The notes under the pieces were generated by a model, which worked only from the letters and a program-made list of their open reading frames with translations, did no database searches and was not told the DNA's origin. Position numbers and translations under genes: made by a program. A stretch of DNA of 23,270 bases, taken from the IMG/VR virus record IMGVR_UViG_2531839662_000011; one strand, given 5' to 3'. Numbering within the stretch: position 1 is the first letter of the stretch; each line of letters starts with the position of its first letter. This stretch comes from a virus (lineage: Duplodnaviria > Heunggongvirae > Uroviricota > Caudoviricetes). Shown here piece by piece: positions 1-22,547 of the stretch.

Positions 1-102
1 ACACCCCGTCAACCTCACTCGTCTGTTACTAATCCTCAACCATCGCCAGACCCCAACACCGTTTCTGCGAGCTAACAGAATTTTTGCCTTACGGTTTTTC
101 AT
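1..102 (-). CDS. small basic protein, 3' end beyond window (MKNRKAKILLARRNGVGVWRWL...)
   Basis: ATG at 102-100 overlaps stop of upstream ORF (ATGA); open to window edge; shares a 20-bp start region with the ORF at 99-275. Confidence 0.3.
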   Translation of the reverse strand, partial: MKNRKAKILLARRNGVGVWRWLRISNRRVRLTGC

Positions 103-275
103 CTTACTGCGTACCCTTTCTTCCGCCTGTTCTGTGACGCGGTGGGTTTACGATTTACGGTAAAAGCCACCTGACCAAATGGATGGAGTACAGCTATCTT
201 ATGGTTGCTGATAACCAGCGACACCATACACACAGGTCGCTGTAAAAGAAGTCGTATTGCTTTACGGTTTTTCAT
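99..275 (-). CDS. small basic protein, 58 aa (MKNRKAIRLLLQRPV...)
   Basis: ATG at 275-273 preceded by GGAGAA; stop TGA 101-99; below ORF-track size cutoff, translated by hand. Confidence 0.35.
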   Translation of the reverse strand: MKNRKAIRLLLQRPVCMVSLVISNHKIAVLHPFGQVAFTVNRKPTASQNRRKKGYAVR

Positions 276-279
276 CGTT

Positions 280-468
280 TCATTCTCCTGTATTTACTAC
301 TGACTCTGTACTGTCAGCCCTGCGGCGCTCCTGAAGTTCCAGCATTGCGGCCCGGAAATCCTGCCACCATTCCTCATCGGCAACGGGGGTGTTCCGCTCC
401 AGCACCTTGTCCGCATCGGCAATCAGTCTGGTCAGACTCTTATCGCTTATTCTGGTTTGCTGGTTCAC
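280..468 (-). CDS. hypothetical early protein, 62 aa
   Basis: GTG start overlapping upstream stop (GTGA), AGGAGG 8 nt upstream. Confidence 0.45.
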   Translation of the reverse strand: MNQQTRISDKSLTRLIADADKVLERNTPVADEEWWQDFRAAMLELQERRRADSTESVVNTGE

Positions 469-755
469 TGCGCCGCCTCCTGCTCATTTTTTTCACTCCG
501 GTATACCAAAATCACGACATCTCCCCGGGTAATTACGCGTGCCGGGTCGCCCTGTTGCATACGGTCAATATCAAAAGCGTCATTAAACGCATTTAGTGCC
601 TTCACGCGCTTGTCTTTGCAGCGACGTTTTTCACATTGTTTAAAGACCGAAGAAATCAACCACCTGAATGACATAAAAGTGATATAGCCATAACCGATAA
701 GCGCCAGACCTGTATTCATGGCTACATCTATCGTTATCGTTTTATCAATGCTCAT
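465..755 (-). CDS. hypothetical early protein, 96 aa, hydrophobic N-terminal segment
   Basis: ATG at 755-753 with AGGAGG upstream; N-terminus NTGLALIGYGYITFMSFRWLISSVF looks membrane-spanning. Confidence 0.5.
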   Translation of the reverse strand: MSIDKTITIDVAMNTGLALIGYGYITFMSFRWLISSVFKQCEKRRCKDKRVKALNAFNDAFDIDRMQQGDPARVITRGDVVILVYRSEKNEQEAAQ

Positions 756-828
756 CGTGTCGCCTCCTGTTTTGCCACTTTAAACGCCCGTAACATCGGG
801 ACCGTTTTACCGGTGATGACGGTTCTCA

Positions 829-975
829 TTAAAAGACCTCCACCGCTCTGATGGTGTACTTCAGGGGCCACAAACAGCGCCGCATCCACAACCCGGCAAT
901 AGCGCGGAACTCCCAGAACCAGCATGTAACAATGATTTTTGCGGTGACTCCGTAGTCATAAAATTCAATATTCAT
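829..975 (-). CDS. small ORF, 48 aa
   Basis: ATG 975-973 with AAGAAGG upstream; hand translation; stop TAA 831-829. Confidence 0.25.
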   Translation of the reverse strand: MNIEFYDYGVTAKIIVTCWFWEFRAIAGLWMRRCLWPLKYTIRAVEVF

Positions 976-1062
976 TTGCAGTTAAACCTTCTTTTGTGAC
1001 GTTCTACGGCGGCTTTCATGGCGTTGTGCACGGTTCTTTTAATAATCCGGCGTCCCGCACTG

Positions 1063-1197
1063 TCATAGAACCGCCACCGGGAACCCCGGATATTTGGGAA
1101 ACTCAACCGCCGCGCTACCGTCATTCATCCTGTATTCGTGGCGTTCTCCGGGAGGCTGGTATATTGCTTCGGTAACACTGAGAAGTTTAAAAGCCAT
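1063..1197 (-). CDS. small ORF, 44 aa
   Basis: ATG 1197-1195 preceded by GGGGAGGG; starts 3 nt after stop of 201-aa gene. Confidence 0.3.
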   Translation of the reverse strand: MAFKLLSVTEAIYQPPGERHEYRMNDGSAAVEFPKYPGFPVAVL

Positions 1198-1199
1198 CG

Positions 1200-1805
1200 T
1201 TACACCCTCCCCAGTGCCAGCGGTCTGTTGCTCTGACCATTAACCCCCTGATGCAGTCTGGCGTTTTTCCTGGCGATAAAACCCGCAGTAGCGGCAAACT
1301 CTGCACCCCGACACGCTTTAGCTGTGCGCATATCCCCGTCGCGCAGTCCCTTAGTGCTGTGCAGGTTCTTTCTGTAAAGCTCAAGGCGGCTTTTTTCTTC
1401 CGGGGAGACGTCATACACCGCAATGACATCACGGGCACCAAAGACCCAGCCTTCGCAGAACTGGTCGCCACGGGCTACCCGCGTGGACGGACCGCAACGT
1501 TTGCAGTGTTTATCCTGATATTTCTTGCGCTCTGCCATCATCTGACGGGAAAGCACATCAAACGCGTAAGCCGCGATTTCCGGGCGGCTGTCAGAGCCAT
1601 AAAAACGCACGTGACGTTTGAGTGAACCAGAAGCCCGGTACTCACCGGAGATGTAACACTCGACACCGAAGGCTTTACAGACCAGGTCACACAGGATGTG
1701 CATATAACGCGGCGGCGTACTGGCATCACTCGGCGCACCCGCGCTGGCAGCTTCCTGAATGTCGAACAATTCAGCGTCGTTTTCGCTGATACCATGCTGG
1801 CGCAT
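1200..1805 (-). CDS. hypothetical protein, 201 aa, contains HCKRCG...FCEGW Cys cluster
   Basis: Long ORF with ATG start in early-operon orientation; protein-like composition; no family recognised. Confidence 0.55.
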   Translation of the reverse strand: MRQHGISENDAELFDIQEAASAGAPSDASTPPRYMHILCDLVCKAFGVECYISGEYRASGSLKRHVRFYGSDSRPEIAAYAFDVLSRQMMAERKKYQDKHCKRCGPSTRVARGDQFCEGWVFGARDVIAVYDVSPEEKSRLELYRKNLHSTKGLRDGDMRTAKACRGAEFAATAGFIARKNARLHQGVNGQSNRPLALGRV

Positions 1806-1922
1806 ATAAACCTGGGCTTTTGCAATAGCGTTAGCGGCTTCTTCCGGGCTTGATGTTCCTCTGGCAAGGCGTAACAGTTTTTGATTTTGGCAATGTATTT
1901 ATCTTTCATGGTCGTCTGAACC

Positions 1923-2105
1923 TCAGCATCCTGAATTCTGAATTACGCAACTTCCGGCACGGCCATCAGGAACGTGGGGAGTTCGTTCTGGCTGCGGTAC
2001 TGAATGAACATCTGCTGTCGATTGAGAACTGGTCGCAAGACGATTAAAACAAACGATTGTCAGATTAATTTCGCGGGCGAACTTTTTTTGCTTAGCGATA
2101 TTCAT
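1923..2105 (-). CDS. hypothetical small protein, 60 aa
   Basis: ATG 2105-2103 immediately downstream of hairpin repeat copy A; weak SD. Confidence 0.3.
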   Translation of the reverse strand: MNIAKQKKFAREINLTIVCFNRLATSSQSTADVHSVPQPERTPHVPDGRAGSCVIQNSGC

Positions 2106-2111
2106 AAATAA

Positions 2112-2185
2112 ACTCTCTCTGATTCAGGCGTAAGCCAGCCCCGGCGGGTTTACGCCATATACCAATAAAATTAAAAACAGACTTA
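2112..2185. repeat. direct repeat copy A (~70 bp) with hairpin GGCGTAA(2127-2133)/TTACGCC(2150-2156) and AT-rich tail
   Basis: Near-identical to 2744-2811: core ATTCAGGCGTAAGCCAGCCC..GGGTTTACGCC then AATAA-ATTAAAAACA. Confidence 0.8.
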
Positions 2186-2731
2186 TTAACTACGACGTTC
2201 AGCTTTCCGGTAATGACGGTCAACAGACTTTACGAACGCCTTCACATCACGGGCAATCGAATCCAGCGGATAATATTCATCCAGCAGTTCCATTCCACTG
2301 AATCGAATCTGAAAAAAATCAGGCTTATCTTTATATGACTCCACCAGGTCAATAAACCGCAACTGACGCGGGAGGGATTCCTGCACACCTGAGATAGTGA
2401 GCAAATCATCTTCAAGGATGTATGCGAGGTCTTCCATATCCTTACAGTCAGACAGCATGGATATTCTTGTCAGTATGTTCCGTGTGGCGATATACAGCGC
2501 TGCTGTGTCATTCGCCATCATGGCGAACAAATCCCCCTGAATATAAGCCCCCTTACTGGCCATAGCATTCCCGGCAATCTGTGCATCAAGTACCACATAC
2601 ATAAAATCGGCAGGTGCTCCCAGATGGCCCAGCAATGATGACGCCCATAACGTTACATTGGTTAACTTCTCAGATGAACGGGTAGCAAAACCTTCAGGAG
2701 TAACAATAAAATCCCAGACTTTATCTTTCAT
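2186..2731 (-). CDS. hypothetical protein, 181 aa, candidate accessory gene bracketed by direct repeats
   Basis: ATG 2731-2729 (track start 2737 is TTG), AAGGGGA upstream; stop TAA 2188-2186; no family recognised. Confidence 0.6.
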   Translation of the reverse strand: MKDKVWDFIVTPEGFATRSSEKLTNVTLWASSLLGHLGAPADFMYVVLDAQIAGNAMASKGAYIQGDLFAMMANDTAALYIATRNILTRISMLSDCKDMEDLAYILEDDLLTISGVQESLPRQLRFIDLVESYKDKPDFFQIRFSGMELLDEYYPLDSIARDVKAFVKSVDRHYRKAERRS

Positions 2732-2743
2732 ATACAAATCCCC

Positions 2744-2811
2744 TTAATTCAGGCGTAAGCCAGCCCGACGGGTTTACGCCTGTTTTAAATAACAATTAAA
2801 AACAAATTAAA
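2744..2811. repeat. direct repeat copy B with hairpin GGCGTAA(2752-2758)/TTACGCC(2774-2780)
   Basis: Fills the gap between stop of 2812-3003 gene and start of the 181-aa gene; matches copy A. Confidence 0.8.
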
Positions 2812-3003
2812 TTAATGCGGTGCTTTCAGTGTTTCGACTTTTACGAAATAAGGCTCGACATTAATTTCAACCACACAACCACATTTAAAATCTCTGGCCG
2901 GTGCAACAGTTTTTACCACCCGACCACCACGCACCGCCTGATGTGCAATGTGCATGAAACGAGTACCAGGCGGATATAACTGATTAAAGCGTTTCGCGTT
3001 CAT
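2812..3003 (-). CDS. hypothetical small protein, 63 aa
   Basis: In-frame ATG at 3003-3001 within track ORF 2812-3129; 20-nt overlap with upstream gene. Confidence 0.4.
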   Translation of the reverse strand: MNAKRFNQLYPPGTRFMHIAHQAVRGGRVVKTVAPARDFKCGCVVEINVEPYFVKVETLKAPH

Positions 3004-3217
3004 GAATCGGCTTCCATCCTTTCTGGTGAGCATTAGCACAGAACTGTGCCCGGTGTTCTGCCCAGATGCGGCGCAGAGTACTACACGGGCTTTGCGCTGC
3101 CTTACGCCACAGCTTTTCAGCCTCGGCATAATCGCCGCGTTGTTCTGCTCTGGACACGCCCAGCGAATACGCCGCGCAACTATTTCCGGCTCTGTACTCT
3201 TTGATATCCTGATGCAT
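2984..3217 (-). CDS. hypothetical small protein, 77 aa
   Basis: In-frame ATG 3217-3215 directly after stop (3221-3219) of upstream 214-aa gene. Confidence 0.45.
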   Translation of the reverse strand: MHQDIKEYRAGNSCAAYSLGVSRAEQRGDYAEAEKLWRKAAQSPCSTLRRIWAEHRAQFCANAHQKGWKPIHERETL

Positions 3218-3218
3218 G

Positions 3219-3863
3219 TTAAACCCCTGCAATATCAAGCGGGATTGCGCGGTATTCATCAGAATCACCGACGCGCTCATACACGCGGATATAGCTTCTG
3301 CTGCCAACCACCTGGACGGCTTCACCAATCAGTTTCATGGCGTTATCCCAGCGTTCCTCCGTAATATCGAGACGACGCAGAGCCAGAACGCGCCCGGTGT
3401 TAATGTTGCCTTCCTTGTCCGTGCTGAATGCCTCGCTGATGATGGCTTTAATTTCAGGGCGTGCACCTTCCGTCCAGTCAGCCAGGCAGTCATCAATCAG
3501 TGCCTTCGCGGTCTGAATGCGTTCATCAAGCGCGATACGGTCCTGCATGGCGCGCTGAATCTTGTAACGCCCGTCAAAGCTGTACAGCGTGATATTCCCT
3601 TTTTTACCGCCTTTCACAGCGCCGTATTTTTTCGCCGACAGGTCAATAAACGCCTGAATATCACCAAAGGCACGTAGTTTCAGTTCACGCAGTGAGGCAG
3701 AGGCAGCAATCACCATCTCCACAAGCTCACCGACCAGCTGCTCACGGTCGCGGTCAATATCTTTGATAAGGCTTTCAGGTGTCATTACGCCACGGGCATC
3801 CACCCAGTAACCTTCAGGTGCTTGAGTTTTCGTGTATTGCTTAACTTTATTTTCAGTCGTCAT
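3219..3863 (-). CDS. conserved Mu-like early protein, 214 aa (possibly DUF3164-like; label from memory)
   Basis: ATG 3863-3861 with GAGGT upstream; protein-like ORF downstream of B; not Gam-like by eye. Confidence 0.6.
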   Translation of the reverse strand: MTTENKVKQYTKTQAPEGYWVDARGVMTPESLIKDIDRDREQLVGELVEMVIAASASLRELKLRAFGDIQAFIDLSAKKYGAVKGGKKGNITLYSFDGRYKIQRAMQDRIALDERIQTAKALIDDCLADWTEGARPEIKAIISEAFSTDKEGNINTGRVLALRRLDITEERWDNAMKLIGEAVQVVGSRSYIRVYERVGDSDEYRAIPLDIAGV

Positions 3864-3892
3864 AATTAAATTACCTCAGTGATATTTACAGA

Positions 3893-4108
3893 TTAATTTG
3901 TGTTATGTGCGCAGGGCGCAGCGTTTTCAGAAAAAATATTCACGCCGTTGTAGTCATTTCTCAGTGCTTCCTTGATAACATCATGCAATCCTGTTGCCAC
4001 CTGAAACTCCCTTTCAGAAGCGCCATCCTTCAAATAACTTCCTGTAATCTGGGTTAAAACCCTGCCTTTTTCATTGGTATAGATAATTACTTCCAACTTA
4101 ACCGCCAT
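3893..4108 (-). CDS. hypothetical small protein, 71 aa
   Basis: ATG 4108-4106 with AAGGAG 6 nt upstream (track start 4129 is TTG). Confidence 0.45.
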   Translation of the reverse strand: MAVKLEVIIYTNEKGRVLTQITGSYLKDGASEREFQVATGLHDVIKEALRNDYNGVNIFSENAAPCAHNTN

Positions 4109-4289
4109 GTTTTTCTCCTTTGAAATCAAACGATTTAAAAATAATTTCGTTCATAAAACAGTGAGTTTTTATGATAATGTCGGAAACCTGCTCTCCCGTG
4201 ACATCAGGCGGCAACTGATACGTCGCGACGGCTTTCTCCGGTTTACCTGGCCTGTCCAGGCTGAAAGTTAATTCAAGCTCCAGTGACAT
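4098..4289 (-). CDS. hypothetical small protein, 63 aa
   Basis: ATG 4289-4287 with GAGGGA upstream. Confidence 0.45.
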   Translation of the reverse strand: MSLELELTFSLDRPGKPEKAVATYQLPPDVTGEQVSDIIIKTHCFMNEIIFKSFDFKGEKHGG

Positions 4290-4299
4290 ATTTCATCCC

Positions 4300-4551
4300 T
4301 CAATGCATTTGTGTTTCTTGAGGAATATACGGACATCCCTGTGCCAGTTGTTTCACGTAGTCATGGTAGATTTGCAGATCAAGCCGTTCATTTCCGTGTT
4401 TCTCCTTCAGAATCGTACAAATAGCGCCAACAGTCCCCAGAGTTCTTGCCGCTTCTTCGAGTGTGGCATTGTCGCCATTTTCCACCCGAATAAGGTTATG
4501 GCACTGGTTATTACCCAGGTCGGTAAATACTATTGTTAATTTCACGCTCAC
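4300..4551 (-). CDS. hypothetical small protein, 83 aa
   Basis: GTG start 4551-4549 with GAGGAA 7 nt upstream. Confidence 0.45.
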   Translation of the reverse strand: MSVKLTIVFTDLGNNQCHNLIRVENGDNATLEEAARTLGTVGAICTILKEKHGNERLDLQIYHDYVKQLAQGCPYIPQETQMH

Positions 4552-4566
4552 TTTTAATTCCTCGTT

Positions 4567-4806
4567 TTATTGCCATACGACGGTACAGCCGTCGATACAG
4601 GACGTTTTAACCACACGACGCAGGCCGCTGAATGTCTGGATGATTTCCGTTACCGGCCATACAGGACCACCCACGGGCGGGCAGGCATAAACCACAGGTA
4701 AACGGTGATGCTGCCCCGTTACACGACCGCCAGTGGTGTGGATGGCCACACGGGCACGGGAACGGACGGCGTTAATGGTCTGCTTGTCCATCGTCTTGCT
4801 CTCCAT
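4567..4806 (-). CDS. hypothetical small protein, 79 aa, translationally coupled to B
   Basis: ATG 4806-4804 overlaps B stop TGA 4808-4806 (ATGA). Confidence 0.5.
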   Translation of the reverse strand: MESKTMDKQTINAVRSRARVAIHTTGGRVTGQHHRLPVVYACPPVGGPVWPVTEIIQTFSGLRRVVKTSCIDGCTVVWQ

Positions 4807-5699
4807 CAGTGAATTAACATTTCTGAATATTTATCAATGGCCTGCACACTGACCGGTGCATCGCTGATATCACAAATCCGGTACACACCGCGCGCCAGCT
4901 TGAACAGACGACGGGCATTACCCAGCGAACGTGTGTAAAGTGCCTCACCAATTTCCGGGTCCGCCGCTTCCGGCATCATGTCTGTGGCAATCTTGTTAAA
5001 ATCTTCCTGCGTCAGCGTATCGCCCAGGTTAAGCGCCAGCGCCACGCGGCTGTATAATTGAGCGAACTCACCACAACGGCCCTTAAGGTTAATCAGAAGG
5101 TGAGGCATACCCGCCAGGACAATCCCGATACCCGCTTTGTCATGCAGACGGCGCAATACCTCCAGTGCACGATAGGGGAGCAGTTCAGCCTCATCCACCA
5201 TCAGCAGACGACCTGACCCACGCAGTTCACGCACACAGGCATCAATCTTCTCGCGAATATCGCCGTGAACCTTTACCCCAAGCTGACGGCACAGTTCATC
5301 GAGTAACTTTCTGGCCGTATAGCCAATATCGGCTTCAATGAGCACTACATCCCGGTTTCTGGCGGCATATTCACTCAGAATCATGCTTTTACCCAGACCC
5401 GCCGCGCCATACAGCACGCAAATATCACACTCCAGATGGGCGTAGGTCAGCACCTCCAGCCCTTTGGCGGCCATGCCGGTGGTGACAAATCGCACTTTAA
5501 TACGGCGGTTGTTTTCCTTTTCCCATTCACGGGTCACAAAGGCAGAAATACGTTCTTCAATATCAGCCATATCGCCCTGATATTTGCCCTGCAAATACTG
5601 GTTGATAACGGCGCTGCTACGACCAATAGCACGGGCAACGTGGGTCTGCGTAAAGCCGCGACGGGCCATTACGTCATTTAATTGCGTAATTAAACTCAT
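4806..5699 (-). CDS. B: MuB-like DNA transposition ATPase (AAA+), 297 aa
   Basis: Walker A LYGAAGLGKS, Walker B LLMVDEAE, N-terminal HTH; immediately downstream of transposase as in Mu. Confidence 0.9.
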   Translation of the reverse strand: MSLITQLNDVMARRGFTQTHVARAIGRSSAVINQYLQGKYQGDMADIEERISAFVTREWEKENNRRIKVRFVTTGMAAKGLEVLTYAHLECDICVLYGAAGLGKSMILSEYAARNRDVVLIEADIGYTARKLLDELCRQLGVKVHGDIREKIDACVRELRGSGRLLMVDEAELLPYRALEVLRRLHDKAGIGIVLAGMPHLLINLKGRCGEFAQLYSRVALALNLGDTLTQEDFNKIATDMMPEAADPEIGEALYTRSLGNARRLFKLARGVYRICDISDAPVSVQAIDKYSEMLIH

Positions 5700-7589: not shown

Positions 7590-7760
7590 CTACGCTTCAG
7601 CGGGCAGGCAGTCGATGTGATACTCGAATGCTTTTGTGCCTTCACGCTTGCGCTTCCATTCCGGGTGCGTCTCTGTGATCCGATTGAGCGTCCAGCGCAC
7701 CCCCTGAACTGTACCGGGCAAACCAGGAAGACCGGCCAGCTCATTGGCTGGATAAAACAT
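7590..7760 (-). pseudogene. A: MuA N-terminal DNA-binding domain fragment, 56 codons then TAG (7592-7590), in frame with transposase ORF
   Basis: ATG 7760-7758 overlaps ner stop (TAATG); MFYPANELAGLPGLPGTVQGVRW...KAFEYHIDCLPAEA* resembles Mu A N-terminus (ANLPGLPKT...KGGKAIEY...LPVEAK). Confidence 0.7.
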
Positions 7761-7996
7761 TACGCCGCCTTACTGGCATACCGGCTTGGCCAGATCTCCG
7801 CAGGTTCCACACCAATAGCATCGGCTATGATGCGTTCATATTTAGGGCATGAGCGATACAGTGCATTTTTTAAAGAGTCTTTTTTTAGACCAGCGCGTTC
7901 AGAAAGTTCACGCAATGTAAAACCTTTGGTGTGCACAGCGGCAACGATGTACTCGCGGTGCCAGTCTTTGTTCATTACTTCATTTCTAACCATCAT
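7760..7996 (-). CDS. ner: Ner-like DNA-binding regulator, 78 aa
   Basis: ATG 7996-7994 (track ORF extends upstream without support); ...IADAIGVEPAEIWPSRYASK matches Mu Ner C-terminus ...IANALETKPEVIWPSRY. Confidence 0.85.
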   Translation of the reverse strand: MMVRNEVMNKDWHREYIVAAVHTKGFTLRELSERAGLKKDSLKNALYRSCPKYERIIADAIGVEPAEIWPSRYASKAA

Positions 7997-8164
7997 TAGG
8001 TTACCCTTAAAAGTTATCCGTGCGGATAACACCGCCGTGTTATCCCTTCGGATATAAGTATTGATCCACAAATAGAAAATTACAAGCTTTCTTTTCTTAT
8101 TTTGGTGAAAAGAAAGTCTTTTTGTAGAAAGATGTTGTAAATCAATAGATTGCGAGAAAAGAAA
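7997..8164. promoter_or_regulatory. divergent promoter/operator region between ner and repressor with two palindromic operator-like sites
   Basis: GTTATCCG-TG-CGGATAAC at 8013-8030 and TGTTATCCCTTCGGATATAA at ~8037-8056 share the GTTATCC half-site. Confidence 0.5.
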
Positions 8165-8812
8165 ATGAGTAAACAAACCGCCGATGATTTTTCCTTTTCT
8201 CAGAATAGAAAAGAAAGCATTCAGGACAGAATCAAGCAACTGGTTGGCACTAGGAGTCTGCGTAAAGCTACCTCAGACTGGGGGTTGCCGTACTCGACCA
8301 TAAATAACTACTTTGAGAAAGGCACCACTCCCGGCCTAAATGTGGTCGCTACGATAGCAAAATTAGAGAATGTATCACTGGAATGGTTGGTCTACGGTGA
8401 GAGCGAGTGCGATCCAATAATAGAAAAAAAGGTACCTACAGAAGACGTTAACCGCCCAAACACAAGTATTGTCGATGAAATACTAAGGCGAGCTACTCCA
8501 GAAGATAGAGAACGTCTTATTGATATGCTGTGTTGTATTGGCATCAAAGGCGTCTTGGAACGCTTACAACAACCCACCAGGCAAGCTACGCAGGCCGACA
8601 GCGACCTGGACGAACAGGAGAATGCCATCAGAAGCCTAAACATCAGGGAATCGCTTAAAGACGCTATTTGCATGGCATTGGCTGGTAATGAAGAAACTGA
8701 CAAAGAGATTTTGCGACGCATCGAATCTCGTGCACGGACTGGGTCGCCAGGTGGTCAGACCGTTGCCACGCCGGAGCAAGAAACGAAGCCTGTAAGCAAA
8801 AAATCAGCATGA
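8165..8812 (+). CDS. prophage repressor, Xre/CI-type HTH, 215 aa
   Basis: ATG 8165 (track start 8150 is TTG); HTH signature SLRKATSDWGLPYSTINNYFEKG...LEWLVYG; divergent from ner as Mu c is. Confidence 0.7.
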   Translation: MSKQTADDFSFSQNRKESIQDRIKQLVGTRSLRKATSDWGLPYSTINNYFEKGTTPGLNVVATIAKLENVSLEWLVYGESECDPIIEKKVPTEDVNRPNTSIVDEILRRATPEDRERLIDMLCCIGIKGVLERLQQPTRQATQADSDLDEQENAIRSLNIRESLKDAICMALAGNEETDKEILRRIESRARTGSPGGQTVATPEQETKPVSKKSA

Positions 8813-9050
8813 ACGCCTACTGCCTGGTGGGCGCATGCTGCCAACTAACTAGCGACATCCACAACAAGACCAATACAGAAGACGGATAAGAAAGGAACAA
8901 ATCAAGCAAGGTTAAAACGGGTTTTAAAATCTTTTAAAAGGCGATCGCTTTCCTGCACCACCAGATCAAAGTAGTCCAGAATAAAGCGTAAAAAAAGGCA
9001 CTTTTGGTCATTTCTTTCAAAACGATCCAGAATCGGTGAAATCTCTCACA
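8813..9050 (-). other. candidate Mu-like left end (attL region)
   Basis: - strand reads 5'-TGTGAGAGATTTCACCGATTC... from 9050 inward, resembling Mu end TGTATTGATTCAC...; tail-fibre homology of flanking phage stops here. Confidence 0.4.
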
Positions 9051-9399
9051 TCCCGCACCACTCAAGGCTTGCAGGTTCGTCCAGGCTGCTCGGACTCAGT
9101 CCAGAATTGATCACCACCCCACACATCCCCAGTTCACGAAGGGTTTTACCGGGGTATGATTTACAGTCAATCACAATATCCCCGCTGATGAAGCCCTCCT
9201 CCACCGCACCGTCGGAAAAGGGTTCCTGCCCGAATTCGCCGTACAACGATGTCATTGCTGCCATTTCATCCGGCGTGGATGGCAATGCACGCCCGCCCCC
9301 GTCACCAAGCAGAACATGCCGGACGGTCACGGTTTGCCCGTTCTGATATGCTGCTTCAATTTCTGCAGCGCCGGACGTTGTCAGAATCAGTCCATTCAT
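9046..9399 (-). pseudogene. H: tail-fibre gene (P2 gpH / Mu gpS type), N-terminal 117 codons only
   Basis: N-terminus ...LTTSGAAEIEAA...VLLGDGGG...LRELG resembles P2 H ITTAGAAKLAAA...AVGDGGG...MRELG; stop TGA 9048-9046 falls inside Mu-like end. Confidence 0.65.
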
Positions 9400-9986
9400 A
9401 CACCTGCCTCACTCTGCCCGCCTGTGGGCACTGTCTTTGTTGTCACACCGGTACTTCTGATTTTTTCTGTCGCCATCACATAGCCGTAACCAAATCCACG
9501 CCCTGTGCTGTTCCCGTAAACGTGAATACTGAACCAGCTGCGCAGATTTTTGGCACGGAGCACCGCATGCTTCAGATCCTGATGATCATTCATCAGCACC
9601 GGTAAATCTTTCTGCTCCACGTTCAGACGGAAGGTATACGGCTCCCCGGGTGGGGTCTGCTCATACCACTCAACAATCTGCGACCGGAAGGGACTGTCAG
9701 CCAGCGATGCCATCAGCGCCGCTTTAGTCCCTCTGTGGCGGTGGATGTATGCAGCACGTTTTATCGCAGACCGTTTTTCCGCCTCCGTCCAGTGTTCATT
9801 CCAGGTGTCCACCGCCATTTCCCAGGCCAGCCATGGCAGCAATTCAGCAGGACATAAATCGGGATTTTTGACATAGCGGATCAGACATACTGCGATTTCC
9901 GCCAGCATATCACCGGCGGTACTGTCCACCACCCGCTCTGCCCGGCTGGCACTGACCGGCAGTATGCTCCTGATATCGTCATTCAT
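9396..9986 (-). CDS. I: baseplate/tail protein, P2 gpI-like, 196 aa
   Basis: NPDLCPAELLPWLAWEMAVDTWNEHW matches P2 I NPDTCPANLLPWLAWAFSVDRWDEKW; ATG 9986-9984. Confidence 0.85.
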   Translation of the reverse strand: MNDDIRSILPVSASRAERVVDSTAGDMLAEIAVCLIRYVKNPDLCPAELLPWLAWEMAVDTWNEHWTEAEKRSAIKRAAYIHRHRGTKAALMASLADSPFRSQIVEWYEQTPPGEPYTFRLNVEQKDLPVLMNDHQDLKHAVLRAKNLRSWFSIHVYGNSTGRGFGYGYVMATEKIRSTGVTTKTVPTGGQSEAGV

Positions 9987-10893
9987 CAGTTGTCTCCACC
10001 TTATTCAGCGTTACCTTGCGGCACCACGGTGCCTGCCCCATCGCAGGAACGATATCACTGCCCGGAGAGGTCAGATTCACCGTAATCACCCCGGTCTGGT
10101 GAAGGGCACCATCCATGCCAGAACGGGATGCCACCGAGCCAATCAGGTGGACGCTGTCAGTGTATAACTGCAGCGCCTTGCGGGCATTTGCCATAACCAG
10201 TTCACCATCCAGTCCGTAGGGAATATGAATATCCGCCACCACATCGTAGGGAATAATTTCTGCCGTCCGGACACTGACAAAATCCGTCAGGGGACGGGTT
10301 TCATCATCACAGACTGATGCTGCCACCTTATCCAGCAGGGGTTGTGATGCAGTGCCATTTCCGGACCGGGATAACACATAAAGAAAAACACGCCCTTCCT
10401 GTGAATGCGTTTCCGGCCCGTAAGCCTTCACATCCAGCACATCAGGATCAGCACTTTGCGCAAAATAGTGGTACGCATTTTTCGCGCCGGCGGTGCTCAG
10501 CCGTGCCCATGACAACTGGATACGTTCGCGAAAAGCGTCATCATCTTCATACACCGCAGGCGTGGGCGGAATGGTGCTGTCATCTGCCGGGGTAATCACC
10601 AGACGCTGCACCTGAAAATTCGCACCAATCTGATCCAGGTCGTTCCTCCGGGCACTCGCAAGCAATACACCCCGGACAGCATCATTGACCTGCTGGCGCA
10701 TCAGCGCCACGCGAAAAGCCAGCGCCTCTGCCCATTTATACGCCGGATCGGATTCCACCAGGGCCGAAAACAACGTGTCCAGCTCCTGATACTTCGTCAC
10801 TATCTGAGTGACCAGCACAGCAGTGTCCGGCACCTCCACCGCATCCGGTACCGGTATCGCAGACAGATCAATAATTGCCTGAGACGTTGCCAA
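9979..10893 (-). CDS. J: baseplate assembly protein, P2 gpJ-like, 304 aa
   Basis: IIDLSAIPVPDAVE...LVITPADDSTIPPTPAV matches P2 J; TTG start with GAGGAG upstream. Confidence 0.9.
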   Translation of the reverse strand: MATSQAIIDLSAIPVPDAVEVPDTAVLVTQIVTKYQELDTLFSALVESDPAYKWAEALAFRVALMRQQVNDAVRGVLLASARRNDLDQIGANFQVQRLVITPADDSTIPPTPAVYEDDDAFRERIQLSWARLSTAGAKNAYHYFAQSADPDVLDVKAYGPETHSQEGRVFLYVLSRSGNGTASQPLLDKVAASVCDDETRPLTDFVSVRTAEIIPYDVVADIHIPYGLDGELVMANARKALQLYTDSVHLIGSVASRSGMDGALHQTGVITVNLTSPGSDIVPAMGQAPWCRKVTLNKVETTDE

Positions 10894-11224
10894 TTTTTAT
10901 CTCCTCGAGTCGAATCGTATCCTGAGTTTCGTTATTCACCCCGACAAGCGTCAGCCACGCGCTTCCTTCTCCTGTCCACGTCACTTCCACCCGCCGGAGA
11001 GTCAGGCGGGGTTCCCAGCGTTCAAGGGCGGTTACCGTTTCGCGAACAATTCTCACCCGCGTGAAATCATCCTGTGGGTTATCAAGCAGACTGAAAAGTC
11101 TGCTGCCGTATTCCCTGAGCAGGACCCGGCTGCCGGCCGGTGTTGACAAAATATCAGTGACGGACTGGCGCAGATGTTCGTTACCGTGCAGATATCTGCC
11201 GGTGGCTGAATCAATACCAATCAT
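10868..11224 (-). CDS. W: baseplate protein, P2 gpW-like (gp25-like), 118 aa
   Basis: Size, position between V and J, GPW/gp25-like sequence; ATG 11224-11222. Confidence 0.85.
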   Translation of the reverse strand: MIGIDSATGRYLHGNEHLRQSVTDILSTPAGSRVLLREYGSRLFSLLDNPQDDFTRVRIVRETVTALERWEPRLTLRRVEVTWTGEGSAWLTLVGVNNETQDTIRLEEIKIGNVSGNY

Positions 11225-11257
11225 GTTGTTTATTCCGGAAAAAGAACTGAAAGGAGA

Positions 11258-11881
11258 TTACATTTGCTGACCAGGCTGTCCGGTGCTGCCACCACTGTCG
11301 CCCCGGTGATTGTGACCGTTATAGACAATTCTGATTTGACTCATCGTTCCGTGATAATCAGAAACCTCACCACCGACCATCAGATCCGCCTTAACCACCG
11401 CCTCAGCATTCATGGTTGCTTTACCCTGTACGGTCAGGGTATCTGTGATTTCTACCGGACCGTCCAGGGTTCCCCTGCCGGTAATTTTATAGCTGCCGCC
11501 TTCAGCCAGCGTGATGGACAGGGCATTAGCCTGACGGTCGTAACGGATTTCCGTTCCGGTATCAAACAAAATAACATGTTCGTATTCACTGCCCTCAGGG
11601 ACAGGAATGGCGTCAATATTGGCCCCCGGATACACCCGACCGTTACGCAAATCGCCCGCCTCCGATATCACTGTAACGGCATCTCCGGGAGCCGGGTAAT
11701 TACTGACCTGCATGTAGCGCCCGGACTGTACCTGAATCCAGGGCAACGGAGGCGAAAGCACATCCCCGATATCCACCCGAACCATCACCGGGCTACCCGG
11801 GATCACCTCGTCCACCACGCCGCGACGGACCATGTCCGCCACCCTGCGGCGTAACTCTGCCACTTCATCTGCCAGACTCAT
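11258..11881 (-). CDS. V: baseplate spike protein, P2 gpV-like, 207 aa
   Basis: C-terminus YNGHNHRGDSGGSTGQP matches P2 V HTHKHPGDSGGTTGSP; in-frame ATG 11881-11879 (track ORF over-extended). Confidence 0.85.
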   Translation of the reverse strand: MSLADEVAELRRRVADMVRRGVVDEVIPGSPVMVRVDIGDVLSPPLPWIQVQSGRYMQVSNYPAPGDAVTVISEAGDLRNGRVYPGANIDAIPVPEGSEYEHVILFDTGTEIRYDRQANALSITLAEGGSYKITGRGTLDGPVEITDTLTVQGKATMNAEAVVKADLMVGGEVSDYHGTMSQIRIVYNGHNHRGDSGGSTGQPGQQM

Positions 11882-13949: not shown

Positions 13950-14978
13950 TTATTTCACCTGAACCACCACAAACGCATCCGGATCCGGCAGCACCATCAA
14001 CGGCGCAGACTGCGTCATTGTATATTCGCAACCAGGATCCCCCACTTCCTCCCAGTGTTTCGGATAACGAATCGCAGAGGTGATCCCTTCACTCAGCGCC
14101 TGATTATCCTGGATTGCGCCATAGCAACGGACGCCCTCCGCCTGAGTGTTTCCCAGAATCAGTGTACCTTCCGGCAGATAACGCTGTTCATCCCCGTTTT
14201 CGTCAACATACGTTGTCTTCGCCACCACGACAGCCAGATCGCCGTACCAGCCCTTAAAGGAAACCACGGAACCCAGGTCTTTCAGTGCGGTTTCCAGCTC
14301 AGATTTGGAGCCACGGCGGGTATCCAGTTTTTCACGGAACAGTTTAAAACCGTTCAGCATACGCCAGACCGTGCCGTCCATAATCGCGATATTGATGGTA
14401 CCGGAAGCAAAATCGCAGTACGCATCAAGATCATGCGTCGGATCAAAGGTGTCAGCATTCTGCTTTGACCATTCGCGTCCGCCAGCCTGCGTAATGTTAT
14501 TGGCGGCAGAACGCCCAAAATCCACTTCCACCGTCTCAAACTGCTCGCCGCTCATAGTGTATTTACCCTGCAGAACAGCACTGACTGCCTGCATTTCTTC
14601 CACCTGCACAATCGCCTGCTCTTCCTGTTTCAGGTTGTCCGTCAGAATACGCAGACGGCGGTAAGCCGGGTCATTAAGGCGGGCCGGATCTTCCCCCGGA
14701 AGACGTTCTACAGCCTGCTGATAATCAAAGCGGTGTTTTGGTTTTACATAACCGGGACGTAACACGCGGGTTTCACCACCACGGCTGCGCAGCACTTTGC
14801 CTGACACCACCGGAGACACATACGCCGCAACCGGTGTTTTGCCGGTAATTTTATCCAGCATGACTTCCTGAGTATGGAAAGTGATCGTGCGACGAAAGAA
14901 CAGCTCAAGAAACAGCGCACGAAATTTCACTTTCTGCTCGGTGTACCCGAGTAACTGACGCGTGGTAAATAACCCCAT
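13950..14978 (-). CDS. E: major capsid protein, lambda gpE-like, 342 aa
   Basis: Collinear similarity to lambda E (e.g. RSRGGETRVLRPGYVKPKH, GNTQAEGVRCYGAIQD, MTQSAPLMVLPDPDAFVVVQ). Confidence 0.95.
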   Translation of the reverse strand: MGLFTTRQLLGYTEQKVKFRALFLELFFRRTITFHTQEVMLDKITGKTPVAAYVSPVVSGKVLRSRGGETRVLRPGYVKPKHRFDYQQAVERLPGEDPARLNDPAYRRLRILTDNLKQEEQAIVQVEEMQAVSAVLQGKYTMSGEQFETVEVDFGRSAANNITQAGGREWSKQNADTFDPTHDLDAYCDFASGTINIAIMDGTVWRMLNGFKLFREKLDTRRGSKSELETALKDLGSVVSFKGWYGDLAVVVAKTTYVDENGDEQRYLPEGTLILGNTQAEGVRCYGAIQDNQALSEGITSAIRYPKHWEEVGDPGCEYTMTQSAPLMVLPDPDAFVVVQVK

Positions 14979-15001
14979 AATTTATATTCCTTCAGAAACA
15001 C

Positions 15002-15030
15002 AAACGGGCCGCATCGCGACCCGTTTTTTC
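15002..15030. other. stem-loop in D-E intergenic region
   Basis: AAACGGG-(11 nt)-CCCGTTT with T-run on + side and U-rich tract on - side. Confidence 0.3.
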
Positions 15031-15047
15031 AGTTAATCACTTCACCA

Positions 15048-15383
15048 TCAGGCGTGGCTGATGGCACTTCCCACAAATGCGTTGGCTTTTTTCACCGCAT
15101 CCACCGAACCAGGCCAGACCAGCGACTCAGTGGCAAACGTACCGCTTTTGTAGTACGTCAGCATGGGCTCGGTCCCGGCAAGCGCCAGAGCCAGCACACC
15201 CACAGCCGTTCCGGCTTTCTGACCATCCCAGACAACCAGTTTTCCGGTGGCGTCATCCACCATCAGTGGCGTCAGTGCAGGTGTGGCAGCACTGATACCA
15301 CTGGTGGCTGTTGCGGTATGCGCCGGATCGCTTCCGGCAAAAATGCGCGCATCTGCACGCTTTTCCGTGGTGGTTTTAATCAT
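15048..15383 (-). CDS. D: head decoration protein, lambda gpD-like, 111 aa
   Basis: GSDPAHTATA...TPLM...KLVVWDG...YKSGTF matches lambda D; ATG with AGGAGG upstream. Confidence 0.85.
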   Translation of the reverse strand: MIKTTTEKRADARIFAGSDPAHTATATSGISAATPALTPLMVDDATGKLVVWDGQKAGTAVGVLALALAGTEPMLTYYKSGTFATESLVWPGSVDAVKKANAFVGSAISHA

Positions 15384-15421
15384 TTTTCAGCCTCCTGATT
15401 TATCTGAATTCCGGATATCGC

Positions 15422-16132
15422 TTACGGCATACTCATCAGCAGGTCTTCCTCACCGCGCCCGGCAGTTCCGCCACCGGAAACCGCACTGGCAGCATGCTGT
15501 GCCATAAAGCGATCAAAAAGTGTTTCCTGTGACGGTTGCGATGCCGCCGGCGCGGCTGCCAGCAGCGTTTTCGCCTGCGCCACCGTCATTCCCGGTTGTT
15601 CTGTCAGTGCCTGTGCAAGTTGCTCGCGCCCTTTTGCCTCCGGCAGCGCCATAATCTGATCGCCGACACTTGCAGAACCAGCAACCGGTGCCGCCGCCAG
15701 TAACGTTTTGGCCTGGTCAACGGTCATTCCCGGCTGTTCAGCCAGCGCCTGCGCGAGTTGTTCACGCCCTTTTGCTTCCGGTAACGCCATAATCTGATCG
15801 CCTGTGCCTGCAGCACCAGCAGCAGGGGCTGCCGCCAGAAACGCTTTCGCCTGCTCCACCGTCATCCCCGGCTGACCTGCCAGCATCTGTGCCAGTTGCT
15901 CACGCCCCTTTGCTTCCGGCAGCCCCATAATCTGATCGCCCGTGCTGTCAGTACCGGCAACCGGCGCAGCTGCAAGCAACGTTTTCGCCTGCTCAACCGT
16001 CATTCCTGGCTGACCTGCCAGCATTTGCGCCAGTTGCTCGCGCCCTTTCGCCTCCTGACAATTCAGGATCCCCATCACGCGCTGATTTTCCTGGGCCACC
16101 GCTTCAGCAACGGTGAGATTTTTAACAGTCAT
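15422..16132 (-). CDS. nu3: Nu3-like scaffold protein from in-frame internal start within C
   Basis: In-frame ATG 16132-16130 preceded by AAGGAG at 6 nt; analogous to lambda Nu3 nested in C. Confidence 0.4.
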   Translation of the reverse strand: MTVKNLTVAEAVAQENQRVMGILNCQEAKGREQLAQMLAGQPGMTVEQAKTLLAAAPVAGTDSTGDQIMGLPEAKGREQLAQMLAGQPGMTVEQAKAFLAAAPAAGAAGTGDQIMALPEAKGREQLAQALAEQPGMTVDQAKTLLAAAPVAGSASVGDQIMALPEAKGREQLAQALTEQPGMTVAQAKTLLAAAPAASQPSQETLFDRFMAQHAASAVSGGGTAGRGEEDLLMSMP

Positions 16133-17038
16133 TGCATTCTCCTTCGTAACAGAGTCATTCAGTACAGAAACCATCACTTCAACGGCATCTGCAGCATTAA
16201 TCAGTTGATCAGCCAGGCCTGCATCAATGCCTGCCTGACCGTCATAAACGGCAGCCTCGGTATTCATCACCGCCTCTGAACTCAGCCCCGTATAAAGCGC
16301 CACCTTGTCGACAAACATCCGGCGGGCCTCATCAATACGGCGCTGAAAATCTGCACGCACACCTGCCGGCAATGCCTGAATACTGTTGCCGTCAACCTTA
16401 TGCTGCCCGGAGTAAATCAGCGTGATGTCCACCCCTTCCTGTGCCAGTTGTTTCTCGTAACTGGTGTGCGCCATCATCACGCCAATCGAACCAATTTTTG
16501 CCGTCTGCGTGACCAGCCGACGGGTACAGGCTGCCGCCAGCAACATGGCGGCTGAACAGGCCATGTCATTACACAGCGCCCACACGGGCTTCTGTTCCCG
16601 CAGACGGTAAATCATGTCAGCACAGTCAAACGCCCCGGCAGCCTGACCGCCCGGGCTGTCGATATCCAGCAAAATGCCGCGCACATCCGGATCATTCACC
16701 GCCATCTGAAGGCGGGCCGTCAGGCCGTCATAGCCAGTCATGCCGGAGTAAGGCCGCAGGGTACCCAGTTTATGCACCAGCGTGCCGCTCACCGGAAGAA
16801 TGGCGATGCCATTCTTCACCTGGTAACTCTTTGCCGGACGCTGACCGCCCGCCATATAGTCAGTCACAGCCAGTTGCATACCATCAGCATCAAGCTGAAC
16901 AGCCTGCTGAGGAACGGCAAGGCTGCCGGCTCCCATCTCTTTACCCAGCGCGCAAAAGAAAACCCGCGCATAGGCGGGTTCCAGTAAAAGCGGCTCATTA
17001 AATGCCATGGCGGCAATATGCGATAAATTACGACGCAT
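15422..17038 (-). CDS. C: head maturation protease/scaffold, lambda gpC-like (S49/ClpP-like), 538 aa
   Basis: Position after portal, protease-like N-terminal half, C-terminal scaffold region with tandem repeats. Confidence 0.9.
   Translation of the reverse strand: MRRNLSHIAAMAFNEPLLLEPAYARVFFCALGKEMGAGSLAVPQQAVQLDADGMQLAVTDYMAGGQRPAKSYQVKNGIAILPVSGTLVHKLGTLRPYSGMTGYDGLTARLQMAVNDPDVRGILLDIDSPGGQAAGAFDCADMIYRLREQKPVWALCNDMACSAAMLLAAACTRRLVTQTAKIGSIGVMMAHTSYEKQLAQEGVDITLIYSGQHKVDGNSIQALPAGVRADFQRRIDEARRMFVDKVALYTGLSSEAVMNTEAAVYDGQAGIDAGLADQLINAADAVEVMVSVLNDSVTKENAMTVKNLTVAEAVAQENQRVMGILNCQEAKGREQLAQMLAGQPGMTVEQAKTLLAAAPVAGTDSTGDQIMGLPEAKGREQLAQMLAGQPGMTVEQAKAFLAAAPAAGAAGTGDQIMALPEAKGREQLAQALAEQPGMTVDQAKTLLAAAPVAGSASVGDQIMALPEAKGREQLAQALTEQPGMTVAQAKTLLAAAPAASQPSQETLFDRFMAQHAASAVSGGGTAGRGEEDLLMSMP
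15530..16054 (-). repeat. tandem in-frame repeat, ~4 copies of 138 bp (46 aa), in scaffold-coding region
   Basis: Unit EAKGREQLAQ(M/A)LA(G/E)QPGMTV(E/D)QAK..LAAAP.AG....GDQIM.LP; in-frame MTV ATG codons at 15589, 15727, 15865, 16003. Confidence 0.85.
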
Positions 17039-18599
17039 CGACTTTTTCTCCCGTTGTCTGTCGGATCTGCTGCTGAAACGTGTCCTTTATCCAGATGGGG
17101 CGGGGAAGACCCGCTGCCTGTCGCTCCTGGCTTTCACGCAGTTGCTGGCGGAAAATCTCCTGATAGTCATCGCCCATCAGGGCCAGCTCTTTCTCATACG
17201 TGCTTAAACCACCTTCAATACGCATCACCGCTTCCTGCACTTCCTTAAGGCCATCAATCGCCATGCGACCGGCACCAATCCACTCGGCACGACACCATCC
17301 GGAACGGGCCTCCCAGAATGAAAAACGGGATTTCGGCGGGCGGATCACACCGCGAATAAGTGCTTCCTCCAGCCAGCAGGCAAACATCTGTGATGCCAGT
17401 CGACTGGCCACAAATTTTCGTTTGCCCATAAAATACCGCCACGACTCATTGGCGGATGCCCTGGCACTGGAATAACTGACCTGTGAATAATCACGGGAAA
17501 GCTGTTCATAGGACACCCCCAGTCCGGCAGCGATGTAACGTAACAGCGCCTTTTCCAGTTCAGAGAAACCATTATCTGCATTCTGCGCTGTCTGCAGATT
17601 CAGTGAATCCCCCGGATAAAGATGCGGAATACGGACCCCGCCCAGCTTTACCGTATTGGTGGCGTAATAACGCGCGTAGCCTTTCATGATGGTGTTCAGG
17701 GGATTTTTACCGCCATCTCCCACCCCGGCGATATATTCAAATGCTTTTTCCGAATCCAGCGTGGATTCAATCGTCGCGGCATACATCGCCCGCACCACCG
17801 CCGACTGCAGTTGCGTGGCCTGCAGTGTGTCGAGCATCTTGAGGCGCTCCATGACAGAATAAAACTGGTTGGCCCCGCGCGTCTGTCCGTCCTCCTGCGG
17901 CTGAAACACATGGATCATTCCCGGTCGCCCGGAGGGCAGCGTCGCCGCAATCCGCGTCCAGTTGCTGACACCGTAACCGGGCCAGTCATCTTCCTGAACA
18001 TGGTAGGCCAGTGCTTTTCCGTACCGGTTGATTTCCACCCCGGCACGCATAAAACGATCGCCGGTACCATAACCGGGTGTACTGACACGTTTCGGGCTGA
18101 TGGTTTTGAATTTCGTCCGGAATAATGACGTGGATTCCGTATCCCATACGGGCTGGACAAAAATTTCACCGTTAAATGTATGAACGCCCACCCCTTCACG
18201 AATAAATTCGGTAAACGAGCGACGCCCCTCCACATCCATCGAACCAAACACCGGATCGCAGAATTCCATCCACGCCGCCTCCACATCTTCAATAAAGGCA
18301 TGTGAATCGGCTTCCGACATCCCCAGCCAGCGCCAGTTGGGCCGGTAACTCAGACGAAACATGTGTCCGACGATATGGTCTTTATGAATTTCAACGGCGT
18401 TTGCGGCAATACCGTTATTGCGGACCAGATCATCCGCACGGGCGTTACCCAGCTGAATGGAAGGTAAGAGCGCCACGTCGGCACTTTCCGGTGCAGGCAG
18501 CCATTCCGCAAGCTGCCCGCCAAATCCGGTACCCCCTCCGGAATACCCCATACTCTGCCGCAGTGGCTGCCCGTGAAGATCCACCAGTTCCCCGTTCAC
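17028..18599 (-). CDS. B: portal protein, lambda gpB-like, 523 aa
   Basis: GYSGGGTGFGGQL...GNARADDLVRNNG matches lambda B; GTG start overlapping W stop. Confidence 0.95.
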   Translation of the reverse strand: MNGELVDLHGQPLRQSMGYSGGGTGFGGQLAEWLPAPESADVALLPSIQLGNARADDLVRNNGIAANAVEIHKDHIVGHMFRLSYRPNWRWLGMSEADSHAFIEDVEAAWMEFCDPVFGSMDVEGRRSFTEFIREGVGVHTFNGEIFVQPVWDTESTSLFRTKFKTISPKRVSTPGYGTGDRFMRAGVEINRYGKALAYHVQEDDWPGYGVSNWTRIAATLPSGRPGMIHVFQPQEDGQTRGANQFYSVMERLKMLDTLQATQLQSAVVRAMYAATIESTLDSEKAFEYIAGVGDGGKNPLNTIMKGYARYYATNTVKLGGVRIPHLYPGDSLNLQTAQNADNGFSELEKALLRYIAAGLGVSYEQLSRDYSQVSYSSARASANESWRYFMGKRKFVASRLASQMFACWLEEALIRGVIRPPKSRFSFWEARSGWCRAEWIGAGRMAIDGLKEVQEAVMRIEGGLSTYEKELALMGDDYQEIFRQQLRESQERQAAGLPRPIWIKDTFQQQIRQTTGEKVDAS

Positions 18600-18805
18600 A
18601 GCCCCACTCCTGCCGGGCCGCGACGCCGTCCGGATACGCCCAGCGCACTTTCCAGCTCTTCAATATACTGACGCAGTTCACCAATCGTCGCCCGCGAATA
18701 CTGAACCTGACGCCCGTCCTTGCTGACGGAAACCACAGCACGTCCGATCATCAGTTCATGTAATGCCCGGCGGGCATCACAAAGCATTTCATGCGTATAA
18801 ACCAT
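18596..18805 (-). CDS. W: head-tail joining protein, lambda gpW-like, 69 aa
   Basis: ARRALHELM.G...VSKDGRQVQY...EL.QYIEELE...RRRGPAG matches lambda W; GGAGGA SD. Confidence 0.85.
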   Translation of the reverse strand: MVYTHEMLCDARRALHELMIGRAVVSVSKDGRQVQYSRATIGELRQYIEELESALGVSGRRRGPAGVGL

Positions 18806-18808
18806 TCT

Positions 18809-20725: not shown

Positions 20726-21245
20726 CAATCCACCTGCCCACGTTTTCACCGGCTTTAGCTGCAACATTGGAGGCTTTCGCGATTTCAGTTTTCACCACAT
20801 CAAGGTGTGACGGTGAAATATCCGGATATTTACGCTGTAATGTCAGCGGCACACGTACAAGTATCCCCGAAATCTCCTGTGCCACACGTTGCAGAATGAA
20901 GGTAAACAATTCTGTTTCCAGCACCAGCCCTTCTTCACGGGCATTTTTCAGCTCCTGTGCGTCAGCCTGTGCTTTGGTTAACCGGTAGCGTTCATAGTCA
21001 ATGGTGCCGGGTTGTAAATCTGATTCTGCAGTCGCACGCAAATCTTCCAGTTCTTTGCGGAGCTTTTCGTTTTCGATATCTTTTTCCCGCTGCGCATACC
21101 ACTCAATGGCTTCTGCAGTATTGAACATGGCTTCGATACCTTTGCCTCCCCCCGACAAAACTCTCAGCCCCTGACTTTGCCAGCCAGTGATTGTTCTGAC
21201 ATCGCACTCAAAAATTTCCGCCAGTTTCTTTTTGTTAACCTTCAC
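20697..21245 (-). CDS. nu1: terminase small subunit, lambda Nu1-like, 182 aa
   Basis: [10 protein letters not shown]...RTI..WQ.QG..VL.GGGKG...ENEKLR.E.E.LR...[26 protein letters not shown] matches lambda Nu1; GTG start. Confidence 0.9.
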
Positions 21246-22504: not shown

Positions 22505-22547
22505 CCCCGGACTGTTCCAGCAGCCGGGGTTTGTTTTTTTTATTTAC
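22505..22547. terminator. bidirectional intrinsic terminator
   Basis: Stem CCCCGG(22505-22510)/CCGGGG(22524-22529); TTTGTTTTTTTTATTT on + side, TTTTGAGTTTTC on - side. Confidence 0.5.

Follow-up and report, generated by a model that had tools for sequence, protein, structure and literature searches.

A Mu-like phage inserted in the tail-fibre gene of a lambda-head/P2-tail prophage of Escherichia coli

The 23,270 nucleotides of phage DNA analysed here (the window) span the meeting point of two different phages, and we propose, at a probability of about 0.95, that a Mu-like phage of 37,086 bp integrated by DDE transposition into a resident prophage, at codon 92/93 of its tail-fibre gene. This resident combines a head of the lambda type with a contractile tail of the P2 type. 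Nothing substantial was found against the transposition reading. A sequence-only reading of the window had already placed a Mu-like phage within the resident tail-fibre gene, and this was borne out by every comparison it had suggested: the Mu-type right end and the in-frame continuation of the fibre gene lie 37 kb to the left in E. coli UMNF18, the two ends are flanked by a target duplication, and related strains (TUM9757, ETEC1738) carry the uninterrupted prophage with a full-length fibre. The features of the window are listed in Table 1.

UMNF18, a porcine ETEC strain (NZ_AGTD01000001.1, minus strand), is ~99.9% identical to the window. Because positions 8000-10500 match its chromosome at 100% identity and only ~0.07% of positions differ over the whole window, mainly as homopolymer indels, the window stems either from UMNF18 itself, as a second version of its sequence, or from a strain very closely related to it. 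Compared with RefSeq UMNF18, the indels (at window ~1083, ~1878, ~17421, ~22412 and 22529-22578) are small and mostly homopolymeric; the 1-bp difference at ~1878 breaks the DUF2786 gene (1199-1909) in the window, and the portal gene (17028-18599) shows the reverse, being whole in the window and frameshifted according to RefSeq.

A megablast search of window positions 8000-10500 against 5,426 complete E. coli genomes identified 110 genomes carrying the resident prophage. Among the matches listed, which cover 30 of the 110 genomes, all 30 begin exactly at window position 9124, at ~98-99.9% identity. Both intact prophages inspected in detail, TUM9757 and ETEC1738, have an unbroken late operon in the order V, W, J, I, fibre (409 or 449 aa), fibre assembly, sheath, tube, E, tape measure, U, X, D, with the fibre gene lying between gpI and the fibre-assembly gene, before sheath and tube. 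Homology between the window and the intact prophage ends at 9123|9124 and restarts 37,086 bp away, outside the window. When 49 kb of UMNF18 were compared with the ETEC1738 locus, two arms of at least 99.95% identity emerged, sharing exactly CATC. The empty site in ETEC1738 reads GATCATC|CCCAG and the filled site in UMNF18 GATCATC-TGTAAC...CCCCACA-CATCCCCAG, or, at greater length, ...GATCATC-TGTAACTTCG...CCACCCCACA-CATCCCCAG.... Removal in silico of the element and one copy of CATC restored, free of any scar, a fibre ORF of 449 aa that is identical to the intact one at 447/449 positions.

Table 1 Features of the window. Positions are those of the 23,270-nucleotide stretch.
Feature	Position	Strand	Basis or remark
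Other early/middle genes of the Mu-like element (DUF3164, ANR-family regulator, DUF2786, others)	1..4805	-	RefSeq UMNF18 annotation
MuB-like AAA+ transposition ATPase	4806..5699	-	AAA_22 and TniB
Mu-type DDE transposase, 680 codons	5718..7760	-	PF02316, rve, PF09299
Ner-like small HTH regulator	7760..7996	-	PF13693 HTH_35, E 9e-26
Mu-like repressor, CI-type HTH	8165..8812	+	PF07022, E 8.9e-6; RefSeq CDS WP_000043808.1; reads towards the left end
Left end (attL-type), 311 nt	8813..9123	-	terminal 5'-TG at 9123-9122
ATTCTGGAC repeat 3, L3-like	8974..8982	-	nt 143 from the end
ATTCTGGAT repeat 2, L2-like	9025..9033	-	nt 92 from the end
25 codons and TGA from the Mu-like left end	9046..9123	-	tail CGVVINSGLSPSSLDEPASLEWCGM and stop, encoded by element DNA
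ATTCTGGAC repeat 1, L1-like putative transposase-binding site	9099..9107	-	TTCTGGAC from nt 18
CATC, left-end copy of the 4-bp target-site duplication	9124..9127	.	second copy next to the right end, beyond the window
5' fibre fragment, 92 codons, P2 H position	9124..9399	-	PF12571; truncated by the insertion
Baseplate genes V (11258-11881), W (10868-11224), J (9979-10893) and I (9396-9986)	9396..11881	-	Pfam Tail_P2_I, Baseplate_J, GPW_gp25; annotation
Resident head/packaging genes gpE, gpD, S49/gpC, portal, gpW, gpA, Nu1	13950..21245	-	Pfam Phage_cap_E, HDPD, Peptidase_S49, Phage_portal_2, GpA_ATPase/nuclease, Phage_Nu1

The same kind of left end occurs at other places in the species. With the 424 nt ending at window 9123 as the query, 26 E. 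coli genomes proved to contain related left ends (78-100% identity); in 25 of them the match extends to the last query position, 424 (window 9123), and in the remaining one it ends at 423 (9122). Their neighbours differ (tkt, rhsC, phnJ, a PAAR gene, chbG, yfcC, fadR-ycgB, a plasmid methyltransferase, the baseplate of another prophage), and at the eight related loci examined in sequence the DNA outside the equivalent of window 9123 is unrelated from one locus to another. An exact 4-bp direct repeat stands immediately outside TG...CA in each of seven simple insertions: CATC in UMNF18, ATAT in AH19B041, TTCG in JNE21-009, AGGG in 48956, TACT in STEC346, TGTC in 160-11H1 and CATT in M8. Two of these duplications were checked against empty sites, that of UMNF18 (with ETEC1738) and that of M8, whose flanks, joined with a single CATT, match empty sites in other genomes over 300/300 positions (100% identity). 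A duplication of 5 bp with a shifted terminus was also tried and rejected: the fifth base at the left end is always the element's terminal A, and at the seven right ends it is T, A, C, C, A, A and C, agreeing in three cases, in which the flank carries A by chance, and disagreeing in four.

The count of 4-bp repeats comes from the seven simple insertions and leaves out F163 and RM9088. In F163 (NZ_OY754349.1) the 3' part of phnJ, the DNA that follows and the 5' part of an ABC-type phn gene (phnJ-phnL) are missing beside the element, whose right end starts with AG and not TG and has no flanking repeat; the locus looks like a Mu-adjacent deletion, and for these reasons it is unusable for inferring a duplication. 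The RM9088 element (NZ_CP042298.1) is a decaying copy with many insertions of IS1 and of members of the IS66 and IS21 families, one of which lies within the transposase gene; these insertions lengthen the element, and the examined stretch ends before its right end. JNE21-009 (NZ_AP041814.1) provides a second case of a prophage within a prophage for this Mu-like lineage, the TTCG-flanked element (6535-41771 of the examined stretch) lying between the DNA-circularization-protein and baseplate genes of another contractile-tail prophage.

The length of the target duplication varies across transposable phages: Mu duplicates 5 bp, B3 and Leptospira prophages 6 bp (introduction of PMC8705779). Our literature search found no paper on a 4-bp target site duplication of Mu-like phages; a 4-bp duplication is nevertheless not new in this group, since the depositors of LC727895.1 already annotate one for an Sp18-type phage.

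Both elements contain related side-fibre genes that share 299 bp at 84% identity, and the RefSeq assembly of UMNF18 contains homopolymer errors, so that recombination between the fibre genes of two prophages, or an assembly chimera, might be considered as the origin of the junction in place of transposition. We regard either as very unlikely. Both junctions fall exactly at the TG...CA termini that are common to independent insertions, and the direct repeat of 4 bp around the element and its scar-free excision in silico also speak against such an origin. Moreover, the Mu-like element has retained a complete 327-aa fibre ORF of its own, and the identical junction occurs in two sequence versions that differ at ~0.07% of positions. 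The shared 299-bp segment, which is direct, is a possible substrate for a later recombinational deletion. In each prophage a DUF4376 gene comes after a 'prophage tail fiber N-terminal domain' gene (36976-39161 and 46839-48814 of the 49-kb UMNF18 stretch). The first fibre ORF of the Mu-like element has an ATG start at 35372 of that stretch and stays open for 327 codons, to 36355, abutting a YmfQ-family gene; RefSeq flags the gene as 'missing N-terminus' (35621-36355), and the same annotation pattern is seen for the first fibre gene in STEC346.

The termini of the element are 5'-TG...CA-3'. Starting from the left terminus, TTCTGGAC (or a variant with T) occurs at nt 18, 92 and 143, always in direct orientation. 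Copies in the right end stand at nt 18 and nt 40 in direct and at nt 68 in inverted orientation, and TTCTGGACTGA occupies nt 18-28 of both ends. The consensus ATTCTGGAY has three matches in the 23-kb window, all on the minus strand within 8974-9107, a number reached in 0/100 shuffles. In Mu the ends are laid out as L1-gap-L2-L3 and R1-R2-inverted-R3. By analogy, the arrangement found here, with three repeats and a gap between the first and second at the left end, and two adjacent repeats plus an inverted one at the right end, mirrors L1-L3 and R1-R3, and the repeats are putative transposase-binding sites.

The sequence-only reading differed on the exact position of the left terminus, and here it has to be corrected. 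It took the element to end with the TG of TGTGAGAG... at 9050, where TGTGAGAGATTTCACCG (the reverse complement of 9034-9050) indeed starts with TG on the minus strand and adjoins the stop codon of the ORF; the whole 117-aa ORF would then be fibre and the duplication would be the 5-bp TCCCG (9051-9055). This placement retains next to no probability. TGTGAGAGATTTCACCG is present but internal to the left end, by 74-90 nt; the element actually terminates with the TG complementary to 9123-9122, 73 bp further right. Intact prophages lose homology at 9123|9124 and not at 9050, related left ends elsewhere include 9051-9123 and end at 9123, and the first TTCTGGAC repeat (9099-9107) is situated to the right of 9050. 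Moreover, amino acids 93-117 of the ORF are missing from the intact fibre, and the flank of the right end is CATC (the copy at 9124-9127 being its left-end counterpart), not TCCCG. The distance from the repressor stop to the end is consequently 311 bp instead of ~240 bp. The general layout that had been described, with a Mu-like early region to the left and genes of another phage to the right, stands, with the boundary moved from ~9050 to 9123|9124.

The minus-strand ORF from 9399 to 9046, with its 117 aa, is present as described, directly after gpI (PF09684). It is an accidental chimera of 92 fibre codons and 25 codons plus a stop from left-end DNA, since homology to the intact fibre stops at 9123|9124, and it is thus not fibre throughout, as had been assumed. 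The 276 nt preceding the junction correspond to 92 codons, and amino acids 1-92 are identical to the 449-aa fibre of ETEC1738; residues 93-117 have no counterpart there. The N-terminus of the fragment matches PF12571 weakly, below the 23-bit cut-off (E 1.3e-4, 22.4 bits), and the intact 449-aa homologue matches the same domain over aa 4-148 (E 1.5e-14, 54.6 bits), so that the insertion cuts inside the domain. The gene has the place of a P2 gpH-type fibre (PF12571), after gpI and before the tail-fibre assembly gene, sheath and tube, with the difference that only the first 92 of 449 codons are left at the original place and the domain is cut. In UMNF18 the 3' part of the fibre gene follows the right end of the Mu-like element, then the assembly gene, sheath and tube; the remaining 357 C-terminal fibre codons are in frame just past that end and annotated as 'hypothetical protein'. 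Although RefSeq UMNF18 annotates the 117-aa ORF as an ordinary 'phage tail protein' CDS, the notion of a genuine short gene between merely adjacent phage regions, for instance tandem prophages, is scarcely credible given the 409-449-aa fibres of intact relatives at this position, which agree with the earlier expectation of several hundred residues and include no protein of ~117 aa, and the in-frame 357 codons beyond the right end.

The genes to the left of the junction are those of a Mu-type element, which occupies 2158-39243 of the 49-kb UMNF18 stretch and runs ~28 kb past window position 1. Its early genes follow the order repressor, Ner-like regulator, transposase and MuB-like ATPase, the repressor on the plus strand and the other three on the minus strand (Table 1). 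In the transposase, PF02316 (E 6.6e-8) and PF09299 (E 7.6e-17) were detected, and rve falls below the cut-off. A complete Mu-type genome is annotated in UMNF18, comprising the repressor, ner, A, B, DUF3164, GemA/gp16, Mor, holins and an endolysin, the late genes for DUF1804, TerL, the DUF935 portal, a gpF-like head protein, G, the protease and the gpT major head protein, and the tail genes for sheath, tape measure, DNA circularization protein and gp45-48-type baseplate, with the element's own fibre genes last. Codon 57 of the transposase gene (window 7590-7592) is an in-frame TAG in the window and CAG (Gln) in RefSeq UMNF18. If real, the TAG would leave the transposase truncated or dependent on suppression, and the window copy of the Mu-like phage may for that reason now be immobile; the codon may instead reflect a sequencing difference.

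The genes to the right belong to the resident prophage, in which lambda-type head genes are combined with P2-type baseplate genes according to Pfam. Based on Pfam and on the annotation of UMNF18 and the intact prophages, the features of a lambda-head/P2-tail hybrid are present: Nu1, gpA, portal, gpC (S49), gpD and gpE, together with V, W, J, I, sheath, tube, X and D. Upstream of the 117-aa ORF are gpI (PF09684), gpJ (PF04865) and gpW (PF04965). Identity of the head genes to phage 21/lambda-type heads is 75-77%; for the tail part no match was found among deposited phages. An Rfam scan of the whole window gave no hits. Outside the window, at record positions 1347180-1347412, tRNA genes for Lys, Thr and Gly lie immediately upstream of the holin and endolysin genes that adjoin the resident packaging genes; the three tRNA genes probably belong to the resident prophage.

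Several traits relate the inserted element to Mu (and D108), the transposable myoviruses of E. coli: the same order at the left end, with a divergent repressor followed by ner, A and B; an A protein with Mu DNA-binding and Mu-transposase C-terminal domains and a B protein that is an AAA+ ATPase; 5'-TG...CA-3' termini; the layout of the end repeats; and insertion at unrelated sites. At 37,086 bp the genome lies within the 36-39 kb of Mu-like genomes and encodes Mor, GemA, the gpT head protein, sheath, DNA circularization protein and gp45-48 baseplate. On the other hand, it duplicates 4 bp in place of the canonical 5 bp of Mu, its transposase is barely detectable by comparison with MuA (PDB 4fcy/1bcm, E about 3e-4), and gin and mom are not annotated in the UMNF18 element. 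Because of the 4-bp duplication and the weak similarity to MuA we call the element 'Mu-like' and not a close relative of Mu.

The phage collection held no near named relative at the nucleotide level for either prophage, and none of the deposited phages showed nucleotide similarity to the early region of the element. At the protein level, the transposase is 44-48% identical to those of Pseudomonas phage VW-6B, Klebsiella phage ST405-OXA48phi1.1, Yersinia phages vB_YpM_5/6 and Sp18-type phages, and 42-43% identical to those of Mannheimia phage vB_MhM_3927AP2 and Haemophilus phage SuMu. The GemA protein WP_012904642.1 and several other RefSeq proteins of the E. coli lineage have accessions that we take to be of Citrobacter rodentium origin; kinship with the Mu-like prophages of that species is a lead, not a result.

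The Sp18-type Mu-like phages of STEC (e.g. Mu_JNE122137, LC727895.1) offer a close parallel in arrangement, in that there too a Mu-like phage resides within another prophage. For the phage in LC727895.1, which lies inside an Stx1a phage, the annotated 4-bp duplication is at 6089-6092 and 45430-45433, and its transposase is 44.7% identical to that of the element, placing the two in the same broad clade. The Sp18-type phages nonetheless represent another lineage with end sequences TGTAACC...GCTATA, and their host prophage is an Stx lambdoid phage, as opposed to the lambda-head/P2-tail phage here, with a different target gene. In closed genomes of STEC CC119, six of ten Mu-like phages lie within mobile elements, including Stx phages (PMC10132054). 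Random transposition has been shown for the C. rodentium Mu-like prophages CRP28, CRP49 and CRP99, whose insertion scars are short direct repeats of 3-7 bp (PMC3072379). No paper describing the UMNF18 insertion was found in the literature search.

Judging from the biology of the Mu family, transposition of the element would have begun with assembly of the transposase on the end repeats. The 3'-OH ends would then have been joined to target phosphates 4 nt apart in the fibre gene, in a strand transfer with staggered cuts, and gap repair would have produced the CATC duplication.

The insertion leaves the resident heads and the V, W, J and I genes upstream, and puts a distance of 37 kb between the head and baseplate genes, on the one side, and the remainder of the fibre gene, fibre assembly, sheath, tube, tape measure, U, X and D, on the other. 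The resident baseplate is thus separated from the other tail genes, as had been supposed, because sheath, tube, tape measure and D lie beyond the Mu-like element in UMNF18. The resident prophage would no longer be able to make its own fibre and, with the fibre broken and the genes from fibre assembly to D moved 37 kb downstream, would very probably be unable to form infectious particles. The element and the resident late operon have the same orientation, and a search of the 311-nt left end for a terminator-like site found none, so that read-through from the resident operon into ner-A-B is possible. That resident late transcription in fact runs antisense through the Mu-like repressor and sense into ner-A-B, so that induction of the resident would trigger the Mu-like phage as a hitch-hiker, seems to us improbable.

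For annotation, the outcome is that RefSeq has a fusion artefact in its 117-aa 'phage tail protein' and the remainder of the fibre in its 359-aa 'hypothetical protein' past the right end. Prophage-calling tools would report either three fragments or a single 80-kb 'prophage' at a locus that actually contains two phages, one of which disables the other. Mu-like phages within other prophages are to be expected because transposition is near-random, and they have already been reported; the UMNF18 case is a well-resolved, ordinary example of a documented phenomenon and raises no new biological question. The exact ends, the repeat layout and the 4-bp duplication are now available for a poorly described enterobacterial Mu-like lineage, and with these defined, other copies of the lineage are therefore easy to delimit.
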